Source: Clostridia bacterium | GTDB taxonomy: Bacteria; Bacillota; Clostridia; Christensenellales; CAG-138 | Reading direction: 5' to 3' | Length of the DNA stretch: 64,000 nt | Assembly: GCA_017545535.1 (NCBI GenBank) | Contig: JAFWMS010000033.1 | Location: 107,981 to 171,980, forward strand | Part shown: positions 52,238 to 58,770 of the stretch, in pieces | How positions within the stretch are numbered: position 1 is the stretch's first letter | How the letters are laid out: every line of letters starts with the position of its first letter | Program-made: the position numbers and the translations under genes | The notes under the pieces: generated by a model | The model's database searches: none | Told to the model about the DNA's origin: nothing | The model's input: only the letters and a program-made list of their open reading frames with translations

Positions 52238-52836
52238 ACATTCTTGCCCTGGAAACCACGGATAAGGTGGCCTCCGTGGCCCTGCTGACGGACGATGGCT
52301 GCCGCCAACTGCGGATCGAAAGCCCCCTCCGGCATGAGGAGACCGTCATGCCGGCGGTGGATGAGCTGCTTTCCGTGGCGGGTCTTTCCCCGGCCGACCT
52401 CGCCGCCCTGGCCGTGGACGTTGGCCCAGGCTCCTTCACAGGGGTCCGCATCGGGGTCTGTCACGGCAATGCCATGGCCCTGGCCCTGGGGGTGCCCGTG
52501 GTGTCCGTAAATGCTCTGGAGGCTCTGGCCTGGCCCCTGCTGGGCGGTTCCCGGCCCGTGGCGGCCATTATCGACGCCCGCAACGGCAACGGCTATGGGG
52601 CGCTCTATGGGCCCGACGGCGCCGTTCTGCTGCCGCCATGCGCCATTGAGATAGAACCCTTTTTGCAGTCCCTTCCGAAGGATGCTCTGTTGACCGGCAC
52701 CGGCTTTTCCGAGGCGGACGGGGCCCTGCCCCTGGCGGAGAGCATCGCCCGGATAGCGGCCCGGCGGGTGGGGGAGAAGGCGGCTCAGCCCCTGTATCTG
52801 CGGCCTTCCCAAGCAGAAAGGAAGCAAAAGGCATGA
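52234..52836 (+). CDS. tsaB: tRNA t6A37 biosynthesis protein TsaB
   Basis: MNILALETT....VALL..., VDVGPGSFTGVRIGV motif. ATGA overlap with tsaE. Confidence 0.85.
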   Translation: MNILALETTDKVASVALLTDDGCRQLRIESPLRHEETVMPAVDELLSVAGLSPADLAALAVDVGPGSFTGVRIGVCHGNAMALALGVPVVSVNALEALAWPLLGGSRPVAAIIDARNGNGYGALYGPDGAVLLPPCAIEIEPFLQSLPKDALLTGTGFSEADGALPLAESIARIAARRVGEKAAQPLYLRPSQAERKQKA

Positions 52837-53324
52837 TGATCGTGCGGCCCATGACCAAGCGGGACATCGCCCGGGTCTATGAGATCGAGGTACAGAGCTT
52901 TCGCACCCCCTGGTCCAAGCTCTCCCTGCTGGGGGAGCTGCACAACGATGTGGCCCACTATTGCGTGGCGGCGGAGGAGGGCCGCGTCATCGGGTATGCC
53001 GGCATGTGGGTTCTGTTCGATGAGGCCCATATCACCAACGTGGCCATCGCGCCGGAGCGGCGGGGGGAGCACCTGGGCCGATACCTCTTTTATGGCATGA
53101 TGGAGAAGGCCCTCCAGTATGGGGCGGACAAGATGACCTTAGAGGTACGGGAGACCAATGTGCGGGCCCAGAACCTCTATTACAGCTTCGATTTTGAAAA
53201 GCAGGGCTTTCGCAAGCGGTACTATGAGGACACGGGGGAGGGGGCTCTGCTGCTGTGGAACCAGGATCTTCAGGCCACCGTGGAGAAAAATGCTTGCCTA
53301 AAACCCAAATTCATCTTACAATAG
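52833..53324 (+). CDS. rimI: Ribosomal-protein-alanine N-acetyltransferase
   Basis: GNAT fold, EIEVQSF..PWS, ITNVAIAPERRGEHLGRYL, LEVRETNVRAQNLY. Conserved tsaE-tsaB-rimI order. Confidence 0.85.
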   Translation: MMIVRPMTKRDIARVYEIEVQSFRTPWSKLSLLGELHNDVAHYCVAAEEGRVIGYAGMWVLFDEAHITNVAIAPERRGEHLGRYLFYGMMEKALQYGADKMTLEVRETNVRAQNLYYSFDFEKQGFRKRYYEDTGEGALLLWNQDLQATVEKNACLKPKFILQ

Positions 53325-53351
53325 GTCAAACGAAAAAGGGGAGAGAATGAT

Positions 53352-53858
53352 ATGAGTTTATACAGCGATTGGAAAGCACGGGCGGAGAATCTTGAGAGCG
53401 ACGCCGCCTATCAGCAGTATTGGAGCAACTACTTTTCTCAGGAGACCGAGGTATATAAGAAAGTCCTGCAAAATCATGACAAGCCCCTCGCCGGAACGGT
53501 GAAGGATCTTAGCGAGCAGGTGGGTATGGACCCCGTGGCCTTCATGGGATATCTTGACGGGGCCAACACCTCTTTCGCCGATGGCGAAAAGGATCTGGAG
53601 GCGTTGACCGAGGAGAGCGAGGTCACCCTGAATTTCGACTTTGAGAAGCTCTTCTTCAACATGCACGAAGCCAAGGCCGACTGGCTCTTCAATCTGCCGG
53701 AGTGGAAAGACGTTCTTTCCGAGGAGAAGCGGCACGAGATCACCAAGGCCTATCGGGCGTCCAAGATCTTCGTGGCTCCCGTCCAGGTGGGCCGCAACGA
53801 TCCCTGCCCCTGCGGCAGCGGAAAGAAGTATAAGAACTGCTGCGGCAAAAACAAATAA
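53352..53858 (+). CDS. SEC-C metal-binding domain protein
   Basis: C-terminal [22 protein letters not shown] (SEC-C zinc motif). Remainder unassigned. Confidence 0.7.
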
Positions 53859-53891
53859 GAACAGGAGGGGGACCACTGCGGCCTCCCTTGA

Positions 53892-54725
53892 TGTTTCTAT
53901 CTGCGGAACGGGCAGGGGGATATAGTCAAGCTCATTGACGGGACAGGCGCGGCTAAGGTAGAATACAGTTATGACAGCTGGGGGAAGAAGCTCAGCTGCA
54001 CAGGCACCTTGGCAACCACATTGGGGAAGCTGAACCCCTTCCGCTACCGGGGCTACGTTTACGACGAGGAGACAGGCTTCTACTACCTGAAGTCCCGTTA
54101 CTACGACCCAGAGACCTGCCGATTTATCTCCGCGGATGTCTACTTGTCCACCGGCCAGGGCGTCTTGGGACATAACTGTTATGCATATTGTCTCAATAAT
54201 CCGATTAATAGAATAGATGAAGGAGGAAATGTTACATATCTAATTATTCCTGATTTTGGTGGCGATTATGATCCATCAAAAGAAGGCTTTAGAGATGCAT
54301 TTAGGGCGTTTAGCGCAGATGTCGAAAAAGCAGTTACAGTGAATGTAACAAACCAGGGTGGTATTACTATTAGTATTAATTTGAATGAATGTGCATCCTC
54401 CTTACATAACATGACACAGGCTGCTGATCTAGATTACTCGTGTCACATTATTGAAGATGAGATTCATAGACAACTAGACAACAAAGGAATCTATTATACC
54501 CCTTCTTATAGGGGAGACAATCAGGATACATATAAGGCAATCAAAAAAGGAGTAAAAAAATACTTACAATGGTGCTATCCAAAGCAATACCCTTTAACTT
54601 TGGGATGGCTTTCTTATCACATTAATCATAAAAACCGCAAAGAAATTTGGGAGGAAGAACAAACTAAATACAAAACAAAGTATCACTATTTGAGAATAGA
54701 GAAGCAACAAGATGAACTGAGATGA
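53892..54725 (+). pseudogene. 5'-truncated RHS/YD-repeat protein fragment: last YD repeats + core end + unassigned C-terminal (toxin-type) domain
   Basis: The frame is open from 53892, right after an in-frame TGA. It reads YLRNGQGDIVKLIDGTGAAKVEYSYDSWGKKL...LNPFRYRGYVYDEETGFYYLKSRYYDPETCRFISAD...HNCYAYCLNNPINRIDEGGN, then about 165 aa of Lys-rich AT-rich-encoded sequence. There is no ATG or Shine-Dalgarno at the 5' end and no N-terminal RHS body. Confidence 0.7.
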
Positions 54726-55215
54726 GGGAACAAAGCATGAAGAGAAATATCATACCTATAATAATTGTTATCATGTTATTGTTGATGTTCAGCATTATTA
54801 TACTGATGAACATGATTGCTATGGAAGAAGTGCCGTATAGCAGCACAGCATTCGACGAACTATATAATTTTCATACGGCTGTATTGTATGAGACAATGTT
54901 GATTGTTTATTCCATTATCCCTTGCATATATGGGATTGCAATCGCTCTTTTGGTTTTCTTGCACGTAAAGAGTAGAACAGTGCCAAAGTTCTATTCGTTG
55001 CTTGCGATAATTGTTTTTTCTTTAGTGGCTATAGGCATGAGTACTGTCACTATTGCATATTTTATGTTTTCTTTGATAGTAGTACAACTATGGATGTATA
55101 CTTCTTGGGCGATGGCAGGACTGCTCTTCCCGTTCTTTATTTCCGCTGTTTTGCATTTAAAGATAATAGCTGGTAACACAATGCGGAGGAATAGAGCGAT
55201 CAATGCCTGAAGGCT
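54176..55215. other. AT-rich (about 35-37% G+C) foreign-looking segment
   Basis: Hand counts: 21/60 G+C at 54241-54300 and 22/60 at 54781-54840, versus 40/60 at 53041-53100. The switch occurs inside the RHS core-end codons and ends at the stop of the membrane-protein gene. Confidence 0.75.
54722..55210 (+). CDS. Polytopic membrane protein, candidate immunity protein of the RHS C-terminal domain
   Basis: 162 aa, 4-5 predicted TM helices (IIPIIIVIMLLLMFSIIILMNMI; MLIVYSIIPCIYGIAIALLVFL; LLAIIVFSLVAIGMSTVTIAYFMFSLIVV; WAMAGLLFPFFISAVLHL). ATG overlaps the toxin-fragment stop (ATGA). Same AT-rich composition. Confidence 0.55.
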   Translation: MREQSMKRNIIPIIIVIMLLLMFSIIILMNMIAMEEVPYSSTAFDELYNFHTAVLYETMLIVYSIIPCIYGIAIALLVFLHVKSRTVPKFYSLLAIIVFSLVAIGMSTVTIAYFMFSLIVVQLWMYTSWAMAGLLFPFFISAVLHLKIIAGNTMRRNRAINA

Positions 55216-55254
55216 AGGGCCAAGGGGACAGGTTCTCATGACAAACTCATTTGA

Positions 55255-55536
55255 CATGCTAACCATCTCCAATTTCAGCTCCAAACATCCCAGAATGGGA
55301 GCGATAACGCGTACGCCTACGCCTACAATGACAATGGGAACATGACCTCGATCACCCAGGGGACGACTTCCGTCACCTACCAGTACAACGGCGCCAACGA
55401 GCTGATCCGTGAGAACAACGGGTTCACCAACCAGACGGTGTATTGCAACTATCTGCGTATCGTCAGAGGGATAGAAAGGGAGGAGGTTTTCAAACCGGTC
55501 GAAAAAAACTTTTTGGATTCTTCGAAAAGAAGTTGA
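55255..55536 (+). pseudogene. RHS YD-repeat remnant
   Basis: Open frame without a credible start. 55291-55440 reads QNGSDNAYAYAYNDNGNMTSITQGTTSVTYQYNGANELIRENNGFTNQTV (YxYDxxGN-type repeats) at normal GC, then runs into the tRNA promoter. Confidence 0.55.
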
Positions 55537-55561
55537 CAGGAGCGCCATTCCTTGTTAAAAT
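55533..55561 (+). promoter_or_regulatory. Sigma-A type promoter of the tRNA cluster
   Basis: TTGACA (55533-55538), 17-nt spacer, TAAAAT (55556-55561), 22 nt before tRNA-Arg. Confidence 0.55.
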
Positions 55562-55582
55562 GTGTGACTGGAACTCCTGAAT

Positions 55583-55659
55583 GCGCCTGTAGCTCAGCAG
55601 GATAGAGCAACGGCCTTCTAAGCCGTAGGTCCAGGGTTCGAATCCCTGCAGACGCGCCA
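55583..55659 (+). tRNA. tRNA-Arg (anticodon TCT)
   Basis: Hand fold: D-arm GCTC/GAGC, anticodon stem ACGGC/GCCGT with loop CTTCTAA, T-arm CAGGG-TTCGAAT-CCCTG, encoded CCA. One C-A mismatch at acceptor pair 4:69. Confidence 0.8.
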
Positions 55660-55736
55660 AGAACGCGGTGCTCGCCGGGAGGAGACGATCGGCGAGCGCA
55701 TGCGTGTGCGGGGGAGTTCATCCGAAAAAGCTATAT

Positions 55737-55815
55737 GGTGGGCGTAGTTCAGCCTGGTTAGAATGTCAGATTGTGGCTCTGAAGGTCGTGGGTTCGAATC
55801 CCGTCGCCCACCCCA
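55737..55815 (+). tRNA. tRNA-His (anticodon GTG)
   Basis: Extra 5' G(-1) pairing with discriminator C, acceptor GTGGGCG/CGCCCAC, anticodon loop TTGTGGC, encoded CCA. Confidence 0.88.
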
Positions 55816-55836
55816 TTTTTTTCGGATGAACAGCGG

Positions 55837-55912
55837 TGGGGTGTCGCCAAGCGGTTAAGGCACAAGACTTTGACTCTTGTATGCGCAGGTTCAAATCCCG
55901 CCACCCCAGCCA
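55837..55912 (+). tRNA. tRNA-Gln (anticodon TTG)
   Basis: Acceptor TGGGGTG/CACCCCA, anticodon stem CAAGA/TCTTG with loop CTTTGAC, T-loop TTCAAAT (one A-C mismatch in the T stem), encoded CCA. Confidence 0.82.
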
Positions 55913-55916
55913 ACCT

Positions 55917-55992
55917 GACCCGTTAGCTCAGCTGGCAGAGCATTTGACTTTTAATCAAAGGGTCCGGAGTTCGAATCTCCGACGGGTCACCA
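55917..55992 (+). tRNA. tRNA-Lys (anticodon TTT)
   Basis: Acceptor GACCCGT/ACGGGTC, anticodon loop CTTTTAA, T-arm CGGAG-TTCGAAT-CTCCG, encoded CCA. Confidence 0.9.
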
Positions 55993-56004
55993 GCTTCTTG
56001 CAGC

Positions 56005-56089
<85 letters not shown>

Positions 56090-56090
56090 G

Positions 56091-56164
56091 GCAGGTATAG
56101 TGTAGCGGTAACACATTAGCCTTCCAAGCTGAGATCACGGGTTCGAGTCCCGTTACCTGCTCCA
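56091..56164 (+). tRNA. tRNA-Gly (anticodon TCC)
   Basis: Acceptor GCAGGTA/TACCTGC, anticodon loop CTTCCAA, T-arm ACGGG-TTCGAGT-CCCGT, encoded CCA. Confidence 0.9.
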
Positions 56165-56231
56165 ATTTTTGCCGGTCCGCCTGCAGGAGCGATCCTTCGG
56201 CAAGGGGCTCATAAAAATTTTTATGAACCCA

Positions 56232-56259
56232 TTGACAACCGGCGAAATTTTGTTATAAT
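56232..56259 (+). promoter_or_regulatory. Internal sigma-A type promoter inside the tRNA cluster
   Basis: TTGACA (56232-56237), 16-nt spacer, TGtTATAAT (56251-56259) in the 108-nt gap before tRNA-Gly(GCC). Confidence 0.5.
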
Positions 56260-56272
56260 AACCCATGCGCCT

Positions 56273-56348
56273 GCGGGAATAGCTCATTTGGTAGAGCGCA
56301 GCCTTGCCAAGGCTGAGGTGGCGGGTTCGAGCCCCGTTTCCCGCTCCA
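56273..56348 (+). tRNA. tRNA-Gly (anticodon GCC)
   Basis: Acceptor GCGGGAA/TTCCCGC, anticodon stem CAGCC/GGCTG with loop TTGCCAA, T-loop TTCGAGC, encoded CCA. Confidence 0.9.
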
Positions 56349-56354
56349 GCATAT

Positions 56355-56431
56355 GCCTCCTTAGCTCAGTTGGCTAGAGCACCTGACTCTTAATCAGGGT
56401 GTCCAGGGTTCGAGTCCCTGAGGGGGTACCA
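56355..56431 (+). tRNA. tRNA-Lys (anticodon CTT)
   Basis: Anticodon stem CCTGA/TCAGG with loop CTCTTAA (CTT), T-arm CAGGG-TTCGAGT-CCCTG, acceptor GCCTCCT/AGGGGGT (two G-U pairs), encoded CCA. Confidence 0.85.
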
Positions 56432-57353: not shown

Positions 57354-57838
57354 CCGTCGGCGTGTATCCGGGGAGCTTCGATCCCTTTACGGTGGGGCAC
57401 CTGGATGTGCTCACCAATGCGGCTGGCCTTTTCGATTTGGTATACGTGGCCGTGCTGCACAATGTGGACAAGCGGCCCGCGTTTACGATAGAGGAACGGA
57501 TGGAGATGATCCAAAACGTTCTGACGGCCGAGCACTTCGACAATGTGCGGTGCGGCACCTTCGACGGGCTGTTGGTGGAATATGCCAGGTCCGTGAAGGC
57601 CACCCACATCGTGAGAGGGTTGCGGGCCACTTCGGATTTTGAATATGAGTTTCAGATCGACGCGGTGAACCGACATCTGGACAACTCCTTGAGAACGGTG
57701 TATTTTATGGCCTCTCCCGGCCACTCCTTCCTCAGTTCCAGCAACGTGAAGGAGATCGGCCTCTGGGGCGGCAGCATCCGGGGTCTCGTACCCTCTGTGA
57801 ATGAAGAGATAATTCGTGAAAGGTTGGCAAAAAAATGA
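57350..57838 (+). CDS. coaD: Phosphopantetheine adenylyltransferase
   Basis: VYPGSFDPFTVGHLDV (T/HxGH motif), RGLRATSDFEYE, SSSNVKE. ATGA overlap with rsmD. Confidence 0.95.
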   Translation: MTVGVYPGSFDPFTVGHLDVLTNAAGLFDLVYVAVLHNVDKRPAFTIEERMEMIQNVLTAEHFDNVRCGTFDGLLVEYARSVKATHIVRGLRATSDFEYEFQIDAVNRHLDNSLRTVYFMASPGHSFLSSSNVKEIGLWGGSIRGLVPSVNEEIIRERLAKK

Positions 57839-58770
57839 GCAGCGCACAAACGATGAAGATCTACAGCATCATCTCCCGTATCGAACAGGTGCTGAACGAC
57901 AGCCCCAAATATAAGCTGGGCGGCGGGAATAAGAAGATCGTGGAGGTCGAGGAGCTCTTCGATCTGTTAGGCGATCTTAAGGTGACCATTCCCGAGGATA
58001 TCCGCCGGGCCAGCGGAATCATCGCCGAGGAGAGCAACATCATCGCCGACGCCAACGAGCAGGCGGAGGAGACAATCAGCAAGGCCAAGGCCGATGCAGA
58101 GGATTTGATGAATCAGGCCCAGGAGGCGGCGGAGAAGGTCTACAATCAGTCCGTTCAGGAGTATGAGGCCCTCGTCTCCCAGGAATCCGTGTATCAGGAA
58201 GCGGTCGCCCGCGCCAAACAGATGCAGGATGAGGCCATGGAGAACGCCAATGCCATCACCAATGGCTCTCGTCAGTATGCGGACGATATGCTGGCCGATG
58301 TGCAGCGGTACATGAACGAGTACATCAAGATGCTCAACGCCAACCGGGAGGAGCTGAACGTACGTCCCGCCCCCGAATTCGAGGAGGAGGACGTGGAGCA
58401 GAACGTCTCTCAGCAGCGGGCCATGGAGGAGCGCCATACCGTGACCGCCGCGCCCAAGCAGCCTGCCCGGCCCGTGGCTGAGCCGGAGGAGGAAGAGGAG
58501 GAAGCTCCCCGTCCCGTGCGCAAGGAGGCGAAGAAGCCTGCCAAGCCCGCCTATGACGATGAGGAGGACGAGCCCAAGAAGCCCCGCAAGAAGGGCTGGT
58601 TCAAACGGATGCTGGAGGGCGACGATGACGAGGACGAATTCGATGACGATGAGGATTGGAGCGAGGACGACGAGCCGGTAAAGGAGGCCAAGCCCAAGAA
58701 AAAGCGTCATAAGCTTTTCGAGATCGTGGAAGTGGACGACGACGAGGATGAGGACGACTACGAAGAATAA
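57835..58770 (+). CDS. Coiled-coil protein with extremely charged disordered C-terminus (function unknown)
   Basis: 311 aa. N-terminal helical/coiled-coil region (ADANEQAEETISKAKADAEDLMNQAQEAAEK...) and a tail rich in E/D/K (EEEEEAP...DDDEDEFDDDEDWSEDDE...VDDDEDEDDYEE). ATGA overlap with coaD. Confidence 0.55.
   Translation: MSSAQTMKIYSIISRIEQVLNDSPKYKLGGGNKKIVEVEELFDLLGDLKVTIPEDIRRASGIIAEESNIIADANEQAEETISKAKADAEDLMNQAQEAAEKVYNQSVQEYEALVSQESVYQEAVARAKQMQDEAMENANAITNGSRQYADDMLADVQRYMNEYIKMLNANREELNVRPAPEFEEEDVEQNVSQQRAMEERHTVTAAPKQPARPVAEPEEEEEEAPRPVRKEAKKPAKPAYDDEEDEPKKPRKKGWFKRMLEGDDDEDEFDDDEDWSEDDEPVKEAKPKKKRHKLFEIVEVDDDEDEDDYEE

Follow-up and report, generated by a model that had tools for sequence, protein, structure and literature searches.

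Orphan rhs modules are textbook elements of Enterobacteria that have scarcely been described in gut Clostridia. Here, we report the analysis of such an element in a stretch of 64,000 nucleotides (hereafter, the window; contig JAFWMS010000033.1, positions 107,981 to 171,980 of the forward strand, GenBank assembly GCA_017545535.1). The host is an uncultured, Clostridia-like ruminant-gut bacterium with a guanine-plus-cytosine (GC) content of ~60%, and the element, an rhs fragment at 53892-54725 together with the genes that follow it, is chromosomal. It is located between the transcription terminator of a conserved SEC-C-motif gene and a tRNA operon and comprises, in this order, an RHS core stub, a C-terminal domain (CT) that we denote CT2, a putative immunity gene encoding a protein with four predicted transmembrane (TM) helices, and a YD-repeat fragment. 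We conclude with considerable confidence that the best explanation of the locus as a whole is a headless orphan rhs-CT/immunity cassette that originated by recombination, spread recently and is presumably silent. The features, in window coordinates, are the following:

53860..55514, no strand assigned: insertion/deletion polymorphism, the whole stretch being absent in empty-site alleles of related genomes
53859..53897, + strand: left junction, with the terminator hairpin (~53864-53888) and a U-rich tail running into the first rhs codons
53892..54218, + strand: rhs core-end stub without a start codon, comprising the final ~109 residues of the RHS shell and ending at the core/toxin boundary (...YAYCLNNPINRID)
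54123..54169, + strand: crossover interval, flanked by core of the orphan-1 type (left) and of the orphan-2 type (right)
54219..54725, + strand: CT2, presumed toxin, AT-rich, 168 amino acids plus stop, following ...NNPINRID; very small family
54737..55210, + strand: putative immunity gene, 157 amino acids from ATG 54737 (GAGGG 9 nucleotides upstream), about four TM helices
55285..55440, + strand: YD-repeat fragment (NAYAYAYNDNGNMTSITQG...NGFTNQTV), a lone repeat (PF05593, E 1.2e-6; TIGR01643)
55441..55582, + strand: right junction and promoter region of the tRNA operon, 98% identical to L088; the junction is also present in L001

A core stub without a start

The reading frame is open for 277 codons immediately downstream of an in-frame TGA (53889-53891). 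Its sole in-frame ATG is the codon 54411-54413, well within CT2, and the earliest in-frame canonical start, TTG 54009, lacks a Shine-Dalgarno (SD) sequence. Another ATG, at 53891-53893, is one base out of frame, and the AGGAGG at 53864-53869 belongs to the SEC-C terminator hairpin, as its left arm, and is no ribosome-binding site. This hairpin directly follows the stop codon of the SEC-C gene and folds with -16.3 kcal/mol in the window; its counterpart in L088, an allele with two modules, is the stronger of the two, its 12-bp stem being perfect and the next bases UUUU (-22.6 kcal/mol, z -4.3), and in L001, a diverged one-module allele, the stem is retained as GGGGGG/CCCCCC. Both alleles share the left junction of the window. 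In the first orphan of L088, an in-frame TTG is aligned with the in-frame TGA of the window (window 53889-53903, L088:1107-1124).

The RHS affinity of the stub is clear. Residues 27-112 match the Rhs_assc_core profile TIGR03696 over positions 1-75 of 76, with 74.8 bits against a cut-off of 32.5 and an E value of 5.6e-21, far beyond chance. The stub further matches the last 94 positions of the RHS_core model NF041261 (1165-1258 of 1261) and aligns with residues 1835-1947 of the 1967-residue open RHS frame of the clostridial locus L016. The core-end family also includes WapA-type RHS toxins of Bacillus subtilis. The full-length RHS proteins of gut Clostridia consist of 2,100-2,300 amino acids (in L016 and L009, open frames of 1967 and 2354 codons and ATG-started open reading frames (ORFs) of 2109 and 2312 amino acids, respectively) and have carbohydrate-binding or disaggregatase-type domains at the N terminus, along with RHS repeats, a core end and a variable tip. 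These genes align with the window at 53895-54239 and 55279-55440 only, so that, within 64 kb, the protein is represented by its final ~113 residues and by another ~43. Unlike the WapA-type and full-length clostridial proteins, the cassette thus retains only the last ~5%. No other RHS sequence and no ORF longer than 767 amino acids was found elsewhere in the window. Homology to other rhs copies starts at 53894-53898; instead of a long YD/RHS-repeat shell, there is the TGA 109 codons before the boundary and the SEC-C gene upstream. What is present is a 3' piece of rhs with a partial core and a distinct C-terminal domain, without a delivery region or translation start.

These results agree with the first-pass annotation of this DNA, which, from the letters only, had described a frame that opens after a TGA without an ATG or SD, has its only methionine deep inside the C-terminal domain, lacks the N-terminal RHS body and retains a recognizable core end. 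That annotation had also considered an assembly or sequence error at 53889, with a full-length RHS body continuing upstream. With such an artefact, the gene could also possess a start, for example, ATG 53891 brought into frame by a one-base error. The position of this ATG, exactly one base out of frame and beside a run of T, is what such an artefact might look like. However, nine independent metagenome contigs with the identical SEC-C protein have this arrangement, the junction sequence in contigs of four independent DNA runs does not differ from the window at any position, L001 shares the junction, and the gene upstream is an intact, conserved SEC-C gene complete with its terminator. The artefact is effectively refuted. 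The out-of-frame ATG beside a T run is also seen in L001.

We considered and rejected three further ways in which this region could be read. Translation of the stub by read-through from the SEC-C gene, which is in the same frame in the window, would have to pass both a TAA and a TGA, and a 2-nucleotide indel intervenes in L001. Frameshifting from ATG 53891 is not accompanied by a conserved slippery site. An antisense ORF (53358-54173) would have its first codon positions hit by those changes that lie at third positions on the + strand.

The core-end motifs deviate from the canonical ones, and the first-pass annotation had taken this as drift. In a survey of 35 distinct core ends from the Firmicutes loci that we retrieved, the Gly of xxGRF is Gly in 21, Cys in five and Arg in five, and the residue following the boundary Asp is Pro in nine only and Glu in four. 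ETCRF, or Cys at that position, also occurs in L002, L048, L079, L021 and L045. Because ETCRF and IDEGG are both retained in L094 (a relative carrying a 70% identical CT) and L001, despite a synonymous divergence (dS) of ~0.6 or more, these motifs, which are widespread among RHS cores of Firmicutes, are selected clade variants, not products of decay. The Asp pair of xDPxG ... DPxG(L), which, judging from Tc and Rhs structures, would be the C-terminal self-cleavage site, is present in the window (ISAD-V, RID-EGG), with the Pro after each Asp replaced.

Allelic arrays and recombination

The array occurs in three forms, namely, an empty site, two modules (L088) and one module (the window). In empty-site contigs from bovine and sheep DNA metagenomes, position 53859 is joined to 55515 with 14 nucleotides of filler, or 53861 to 55533 with 21. 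L088, which was found through an immunity homologue, represents the same chromosomal locus, with 92% identity over 52780-54218 and 98% on the tRNA side. Its gene order is rimI, SEC-C with the terminator, orphan 1 (with the same left junction and another toxin domain, rich in glycine zippers), a 171-residue membrane protein (imm1), a PASTA gene, a YD fragment with orphan 2 (a 418-codon open frame ending in CT2), imm2, another YD fragment and the tRNAs. L001 possesses both window junctions and is only 86% identical to the window. The one-module allele of the window is fixed across nine contigs and four samples. These comparisons show that, in this lineage, the gap between the SEC-C terminator and the tRNA genes holds a polymorphic array of 5'-truncated rhs 3' modules, each with a stub, a variable toxin and an immunity gene.

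To map the crossover, we took the positions that distinguish the two cores of L088 and scored each of them in the window. Between 53912 and 54122, nearly all of these positions agree with core 1, apart from 53918, 53921 and 54023, which agree with core 2, and 54098, which is private; from 54170 onward, the window agrees with core 2. Given core-1 states on the left and core-2 states on the right, this mapping shows that the window allele corresponds to the two-module allele minus everything between two ~320-bp direct core repeats, a product of homologous recombination with the crossover at 54123-54169. Lost in this deletion were toxin 1, immunity 1, the PASTA gene and the 5' body of module 2, and toxin domain 2 was joined to the start-less stub of module 1. 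Because the crossover joined two orphans, the product is still start-less.

The segment that encodes CT2 and its putative immunity protein has moved more widely. Compared to L088, the CT is 100% identical, the immunity gene 99.1%, the immunity tail and YD region 57-72%, and the sequence from 55441 onward 98%. A counterpart of 53898-55440 with 99.1% identity is part of a longer open RHS frame in L078, a 14-kb bovine metagenome contig. This contig is an island of 41% GC in which YD fragments occur in four copies. The differences between L078 and the window are unevenly distributed, with ten in 53906-54110, none in the 1,119 bp of 54111-55229 and four in 55230-55428; a binomial estimate for the stretch with zero differences is ~1e-8. 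At the nucleotide level, CT2 is 100% identical in L078, L088, L089 and the window, that is, in four contexts, although the cores are only 91% identical to those of L088 and L089. Because CT2 is nucleotide-identical in four contexts with differing flanks, the comparison shows a recent spread of the CT2-immunity-2 segment between genomic contexts, evidently by recombination in the flanking RHS homology arms. A part for recombination, as originally proposed from the sequence of the window, is thus seen both in the core-by-core crossover and in the identity of the CT-immunity segment to copies elsewhere. The exchanges that are documented here are between strains or contexts.

L001 represents a third type of core, with 30 private changes, 24 of them at third codon positions. 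Between the stub and L001, 29 of the 36 differences are at third codon positions (P = 8e-9), a bias that holds even before TTG 54009, and the ratio of non-synonymous to synonymous substitution rates (dN/dS) in the core is 0.02-0.03 (0.025 for L001). We considered this bias as evidence that the stub is translated and rejected it; the pattern is better explained by the mosaic of core 1, core 2 and the third core among the alleles. The differences in the stub are inherited from cores that diverged in coding genes and were then shuffled, not accumulated in place.

CT2 and its putative immunity protein

The GC content drops from ~55% to 31-38% at ~54180 and stays low until ~55200, against a window average of 60%. 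The initial description of the C-terminal domain as unassignable holds across all databases searched. Pfam and NCBIfam profile searches detected no match for the 168 residues after NRID (54219-54722), and a PDB sequence-profile search yielded none either (best E 0.11). AlphaFold2 predicts an alpha/beta domain (pLDDT 78, pTM 0.75) for which Foldseek returned no match in PDB (best E 0.8, TM score below 0.2) or in BFVD (best E 0.49).

Relatives of CT2 are exceedingly rare. A word-indexed search among 5.8 billion proteins detected one, word-indexed and profile searches together yielded P0001, P0004 and P0005 only, and an exhaustive HMMER search of 1.84 billion cluster representatives produced P0002 (the L078 copy), P0004 (28% identity) and P0005. 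A further hit of that search, P0003, is a spurious repeat protein and was discarded, as were tblastn matches that seemed to reach the CT in L004, L007 and L022, which are unrelated toxin tips. Profile searches for CT2 relatives yielded nothing further, and no relatives were found in two scans of JGI metagenome contigs. The family is under-counted because start-less copies are not called as genes; L094 and L095 (70% identity) surfaced through the immunity gene only.

Across five distinct CT sequences, the invariant positions, numbered from the E at 54219, are I53, C58, H63, A69, L71, Y73, E81, L86, I91, K109, Y115, L116, Y124, W130, N136 and Y157, of which C58, H63, E81, K109 and N136 are polar. 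The first-pass annotation had singled out two His-containing patches, HIIEDEIH and YHINHKN, as potentially catalytic or metal-binding. This suggestion does not hold: H76, H83, H134 and H137 are all replaced in the distant members P0004 and P0005, and some of them also in L094, and the only invariant His is H63, in the motif SSLHNM. Every window-type copy and those of L078, L088 and L094 have an uninterrupted CT frame; in L001, the frame is shifted by a 1-nucleotide deletion. With dN/dS of 0.36 for L001 and 0.30 for L094, CT2 has evolved under purifying selection as a protein. We infer that it is a toxin of a new small family.

The gene downstream of CT2 abuts or overlaps it: an alternative start at ATG 54722 would yield 162 amino acids and overlap the CT stop as ATGA. 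The hydropathy profile of the product shows four hydrophobic blocks. The CT homologues P0004 and P0005 are followed by four-TM proteins of ~150 amino acids, and the same holds for all members of the CT family. The immunity gene is intact in every allele seen, its homologues form seven allelic clusters at 70-91% identity, and its dN/dS is 0.25-0.41 (0.25 for L094). It has diverged in concert with the CT, with dS to L094 of 0.58 for the immunity gene and 0.59 for the CT. These features fit the immunity gene expected from the sequence of the window, and the product of 54737-55210 is probably the antidote of CT2.

Since the presumed cognate protector is always a four-helix membrane protein, and by analogy with membrane-embedded immunity proteins such as TsaI, the partner of TspA (PMC9484751), CT2 most likely exerts its effect at the envelope or membrane of the cell, or through it, and less likely on a target in the cytoplasm. 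Tentatively, CT2 and its four-helix partner may be a new toxin/immunity family, perhaps with a new activity, which would probably be directed against the envelope or membrane of Gram-positive anaerobes, with headless arrays at housekeeping loci maybe acting as community-level stores from which toxin tips and immunity genes are shared by recombination in the rumen, and not as spares within one genome; as a whole, we regard this proposal as possible rather than probable. The rarity of its family, the lack of an assignable fold and the constant pairing with a polytopic membrane protein make CT2 a reasonable candidate for a new antibacterial activity.

Presumed silence, retention and alternative explanations

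The stub-CT frame begins in a terminator tail, without a start codon or ribosome site, no contig from RNA libraries spans the left junction, and the frame is presumably not translated. The cassette would be kept mainly by the linked immunity gene, which would protect against neighbours that deliver CT2 on a full-length RHS protein, and it would also be a spare toxin tip, ready to recombine with any RHS gene whose core matches.

Several observations weigh against parts of this scenario. RNA-labelled gut libraries contain sparse, depth-2 contigs over the core, CT and immunity regions, so that low-level transcription is possible. Several of these contigs continue into a longer RHS body or have variants of the L078 type, so that they do not discriminate between the window locus and L078- or L088-type copies. 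In four samples where the genome is abundant, no second core of at least 80% identity was found at comparable depth; given this result and the lack of an adjacent full-length rhs gene, a partner for activation within the genome may not exist. With respect to origin, L088 is a contemporary allele that stands in for the ancestor. The envelope target of CT2 is deduced solely from the membrane nature of the presumed immunity protein, and CT2 itself is hydrophilic, without a hydrophobic hairpin. Finally, the membrane partners of the distant family members share an architecture with the putative immunity protein, the sequence similarity being marginal (E ~3e-4 without composition correction).

It is conceivable, although unlikely, that the cassette functions inside the cell in the manner of a toxin-antitoxin (TA) system, with a promoter within the core and a weak start (TTG 54009 or CTG 53901) yielding a core-tail-CT2 protein that the membrane protein restrains, thereby stabilizing the locus or modulating growth. 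There is a precedent in the main and orphan Rhs-CTs of Salmonella, for which promoters 89 nucleotides upstream of the core motif and a CTG start are reported (PMC7043789). In the window, a promoter-like TTGACG-18-TAGAAT (10/12 match) at 53935-53964 is followed by the in-frame TTG 54009, which opens the 238-residue ORF annotated by gene callers, and the intact CT frames, the purifying selection and the sparse RNA contigs over core and CT would all fit. However, this site is embedded in conserved coding sequence, and the regional count of promoter-like sites, eight compared to 3.7 +/- 2.1 in shuffles, is not clearly above expectation. Moreover, neither TTG 54009 nor CTG 53901 is preceded by an SD, purifying selection extends upstream of TTG 54009, where exchange among cores accounts for it, the CT of L001 is frameshifted, and a membrane-embedded antidote would be atypical for a cytoplasmic type II antitoxin. 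That the locus is a decaying, merely young remnant of an rhs array, with nothing under current selection, also appears quite improbable. Such a relic would account for the YD fragment, which is clearly dead (a stop and frameshifts in L001, 57-72% identity in L088), for the CT frameshift in L001, for the empty-site alleles, which show that the locus is dispensable, and for the failure to detect a partner core in the same samples. It is difficult to reconcile with an immunity gene that is intact in every allele and maintains its dN/dS over dS values up to 0.58, with the nucleotide identity of CT2 in contexts that have 2-8% divergent flanks, a sign of recent spread and not of decay, and with the fixation of the allele across many samples.

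Comparison with known systems

Modules of the orphan rhs-CT/rhsI type are known from Enterobacteria, and it has been described that recombination of the core can activate them (Poole et al. 2011, PMC3150448; PMC3967940), and a Salmonella Typhimurium orphan has been shown to be activated by recombination with the main rhs gene (Koskiniemi et al. 2014, PMC3967940). The window cassette resembles these orphans in being a 3' piece of rhs with a partial core but without a delivery region or start, and in combining a distinct low-GC toxin tip with a small, here putative, immunity gene downstream. As in the Salmonella orphan (PMC3967940), the intervening pair is lost and the tip exchanged when the core repeats recombine, an event that is seen here from the crossover map. 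The differences are also notable. The cassette belongs to a Clostridia genome of the Gram-positive type. Its array is headless; the locus contains no main rhs gene, and in the same samples none with a similar core was detected. The toxin domain is unrelated to any described one. Unlike the activation in Salmonella, the crossover joined two orphans, and its product still lacks a start.

Rhs-CT/immunity pairs of Salmonella can also be expressed internally in a type II TA-like manner (Starsta et al. 2020, PMC7043789). The window contains the same kind of gene pair, with a promoter-like site and a weak start candidate within the core stub, and differs in that its antidote candidate is a polytopic membrane protein. 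Outside RHS systems, recombination between tandem paralogues shapes the immunity arrays of the Firmicutes type VII secretion system (T7SS; PMC9484751) and the Vibrio cholerae type VI secretion system (T6SS; PMC5361080), where, as appears to be the case here, immunity is retained without a working cognate toxin and homologous recombination between repeats drives change; the scaffold in the window, however, is RHS and not LXG/T7SS or T6SS. In the T7SS case, the polytopic TsaI neutralizes the membrane-depolarizing TspA (PMC9484751), a pairing of membrane-embedded immunity with an envelope- or membrane-acting toxin that the window pair, with its putative immunity protein and presumed target, would parallel; no sequence relation to TsaI is claimed.

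Thus, the cassette is an ordinary type of element, an orphan rhs-CT/immunity module, with less ordinary features: it is headless, occupies a housekeeping/tRNA site, belongs to an allelic series with a mapped crossover and encodes undescribed domain families. The natural series of empty, one-module and two-module alleles, the crossover mapped within 47 bp and the identical toxin/immunity segment directly illustrate how RHS tips and immunity genes move through a rumen community.

Neighbourhood and further observations

The gene upstream of the cassette (53352-53858) encodes a conserved SEC-C-motif protein (PRK05590, E 2e-65) and is preceded by queA, tgt, tsaE, tsaB and rimI. In the window, L085-87 and L088, it is rimI and SEC-C that lie upstream of the cassette, not a main rhs gene. 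On the other side, a strong promoter-like sequence, TTGACA-17-TG-TAAAAT, at 55533-55561 is near-consensus with an extended -10 element and precedes tRNA-Arg, which starts at 55583. The cluster at 55533-56431 contains eight tRNA genes: Arg-TCT, His, Gln, Lys-TTT, Leu-TAG, Gly-TCC, Gly-GCC and Lys-CTT.

Since the equivalent segment in L002 and L078 is located 582 nucleotides upstream of the point at which the window stub starts, the YD fragment is the 5' beginning of a further orphan module, cut after NQTV. In four samples, the only match between the window and a contig of 2.2-2.5 kb is the part 55332-55424 of this fragment (84% identity). The depth of that contig is about double that of the window contig, and it probably represents a further RHS-derived sequence with two copies in this genome.

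Distant members of the CT family (L079, L080-84) are likewise found in small arrays, with a YD fragment at the end and housekeeping genes next to it. The YD copies at L078:1055-1400, L078:6193-6450 and L048:1565-1780 end at ...NGFTNQTV (in L048, a few codons before it) and continue into a GC hairpin plus T tract, followed by TPR-like ORFs of 65-79 amino acids and, after one such cassette end, by a Zeta_toxin gene; these repeated ends lie in the 41% GC island. Orphan 1 of L088 (L088:1440-3842) ends in a Gly/Ala-zipper-rich hydrophobic domain (GAVLGAVIGAVTAAING...) without a Pfam match, which looks like a membrane-inserting toxin tip; the membrane protein and then the PASTA-domain protein follow it inside the array.

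In L086:7991-11641, the SEC-C gene and rhs stub are identical to those of the window and feoB replaces rsmD/coaD after the tRNA cluster, which reflects either a rearrangement at the tRNA array or a misassembly. Downstream of coaD, the window encodes a 311-residue protein (57835-58770) with a long, highly acidic, lysine-rich low-complexity C-terminal tail.

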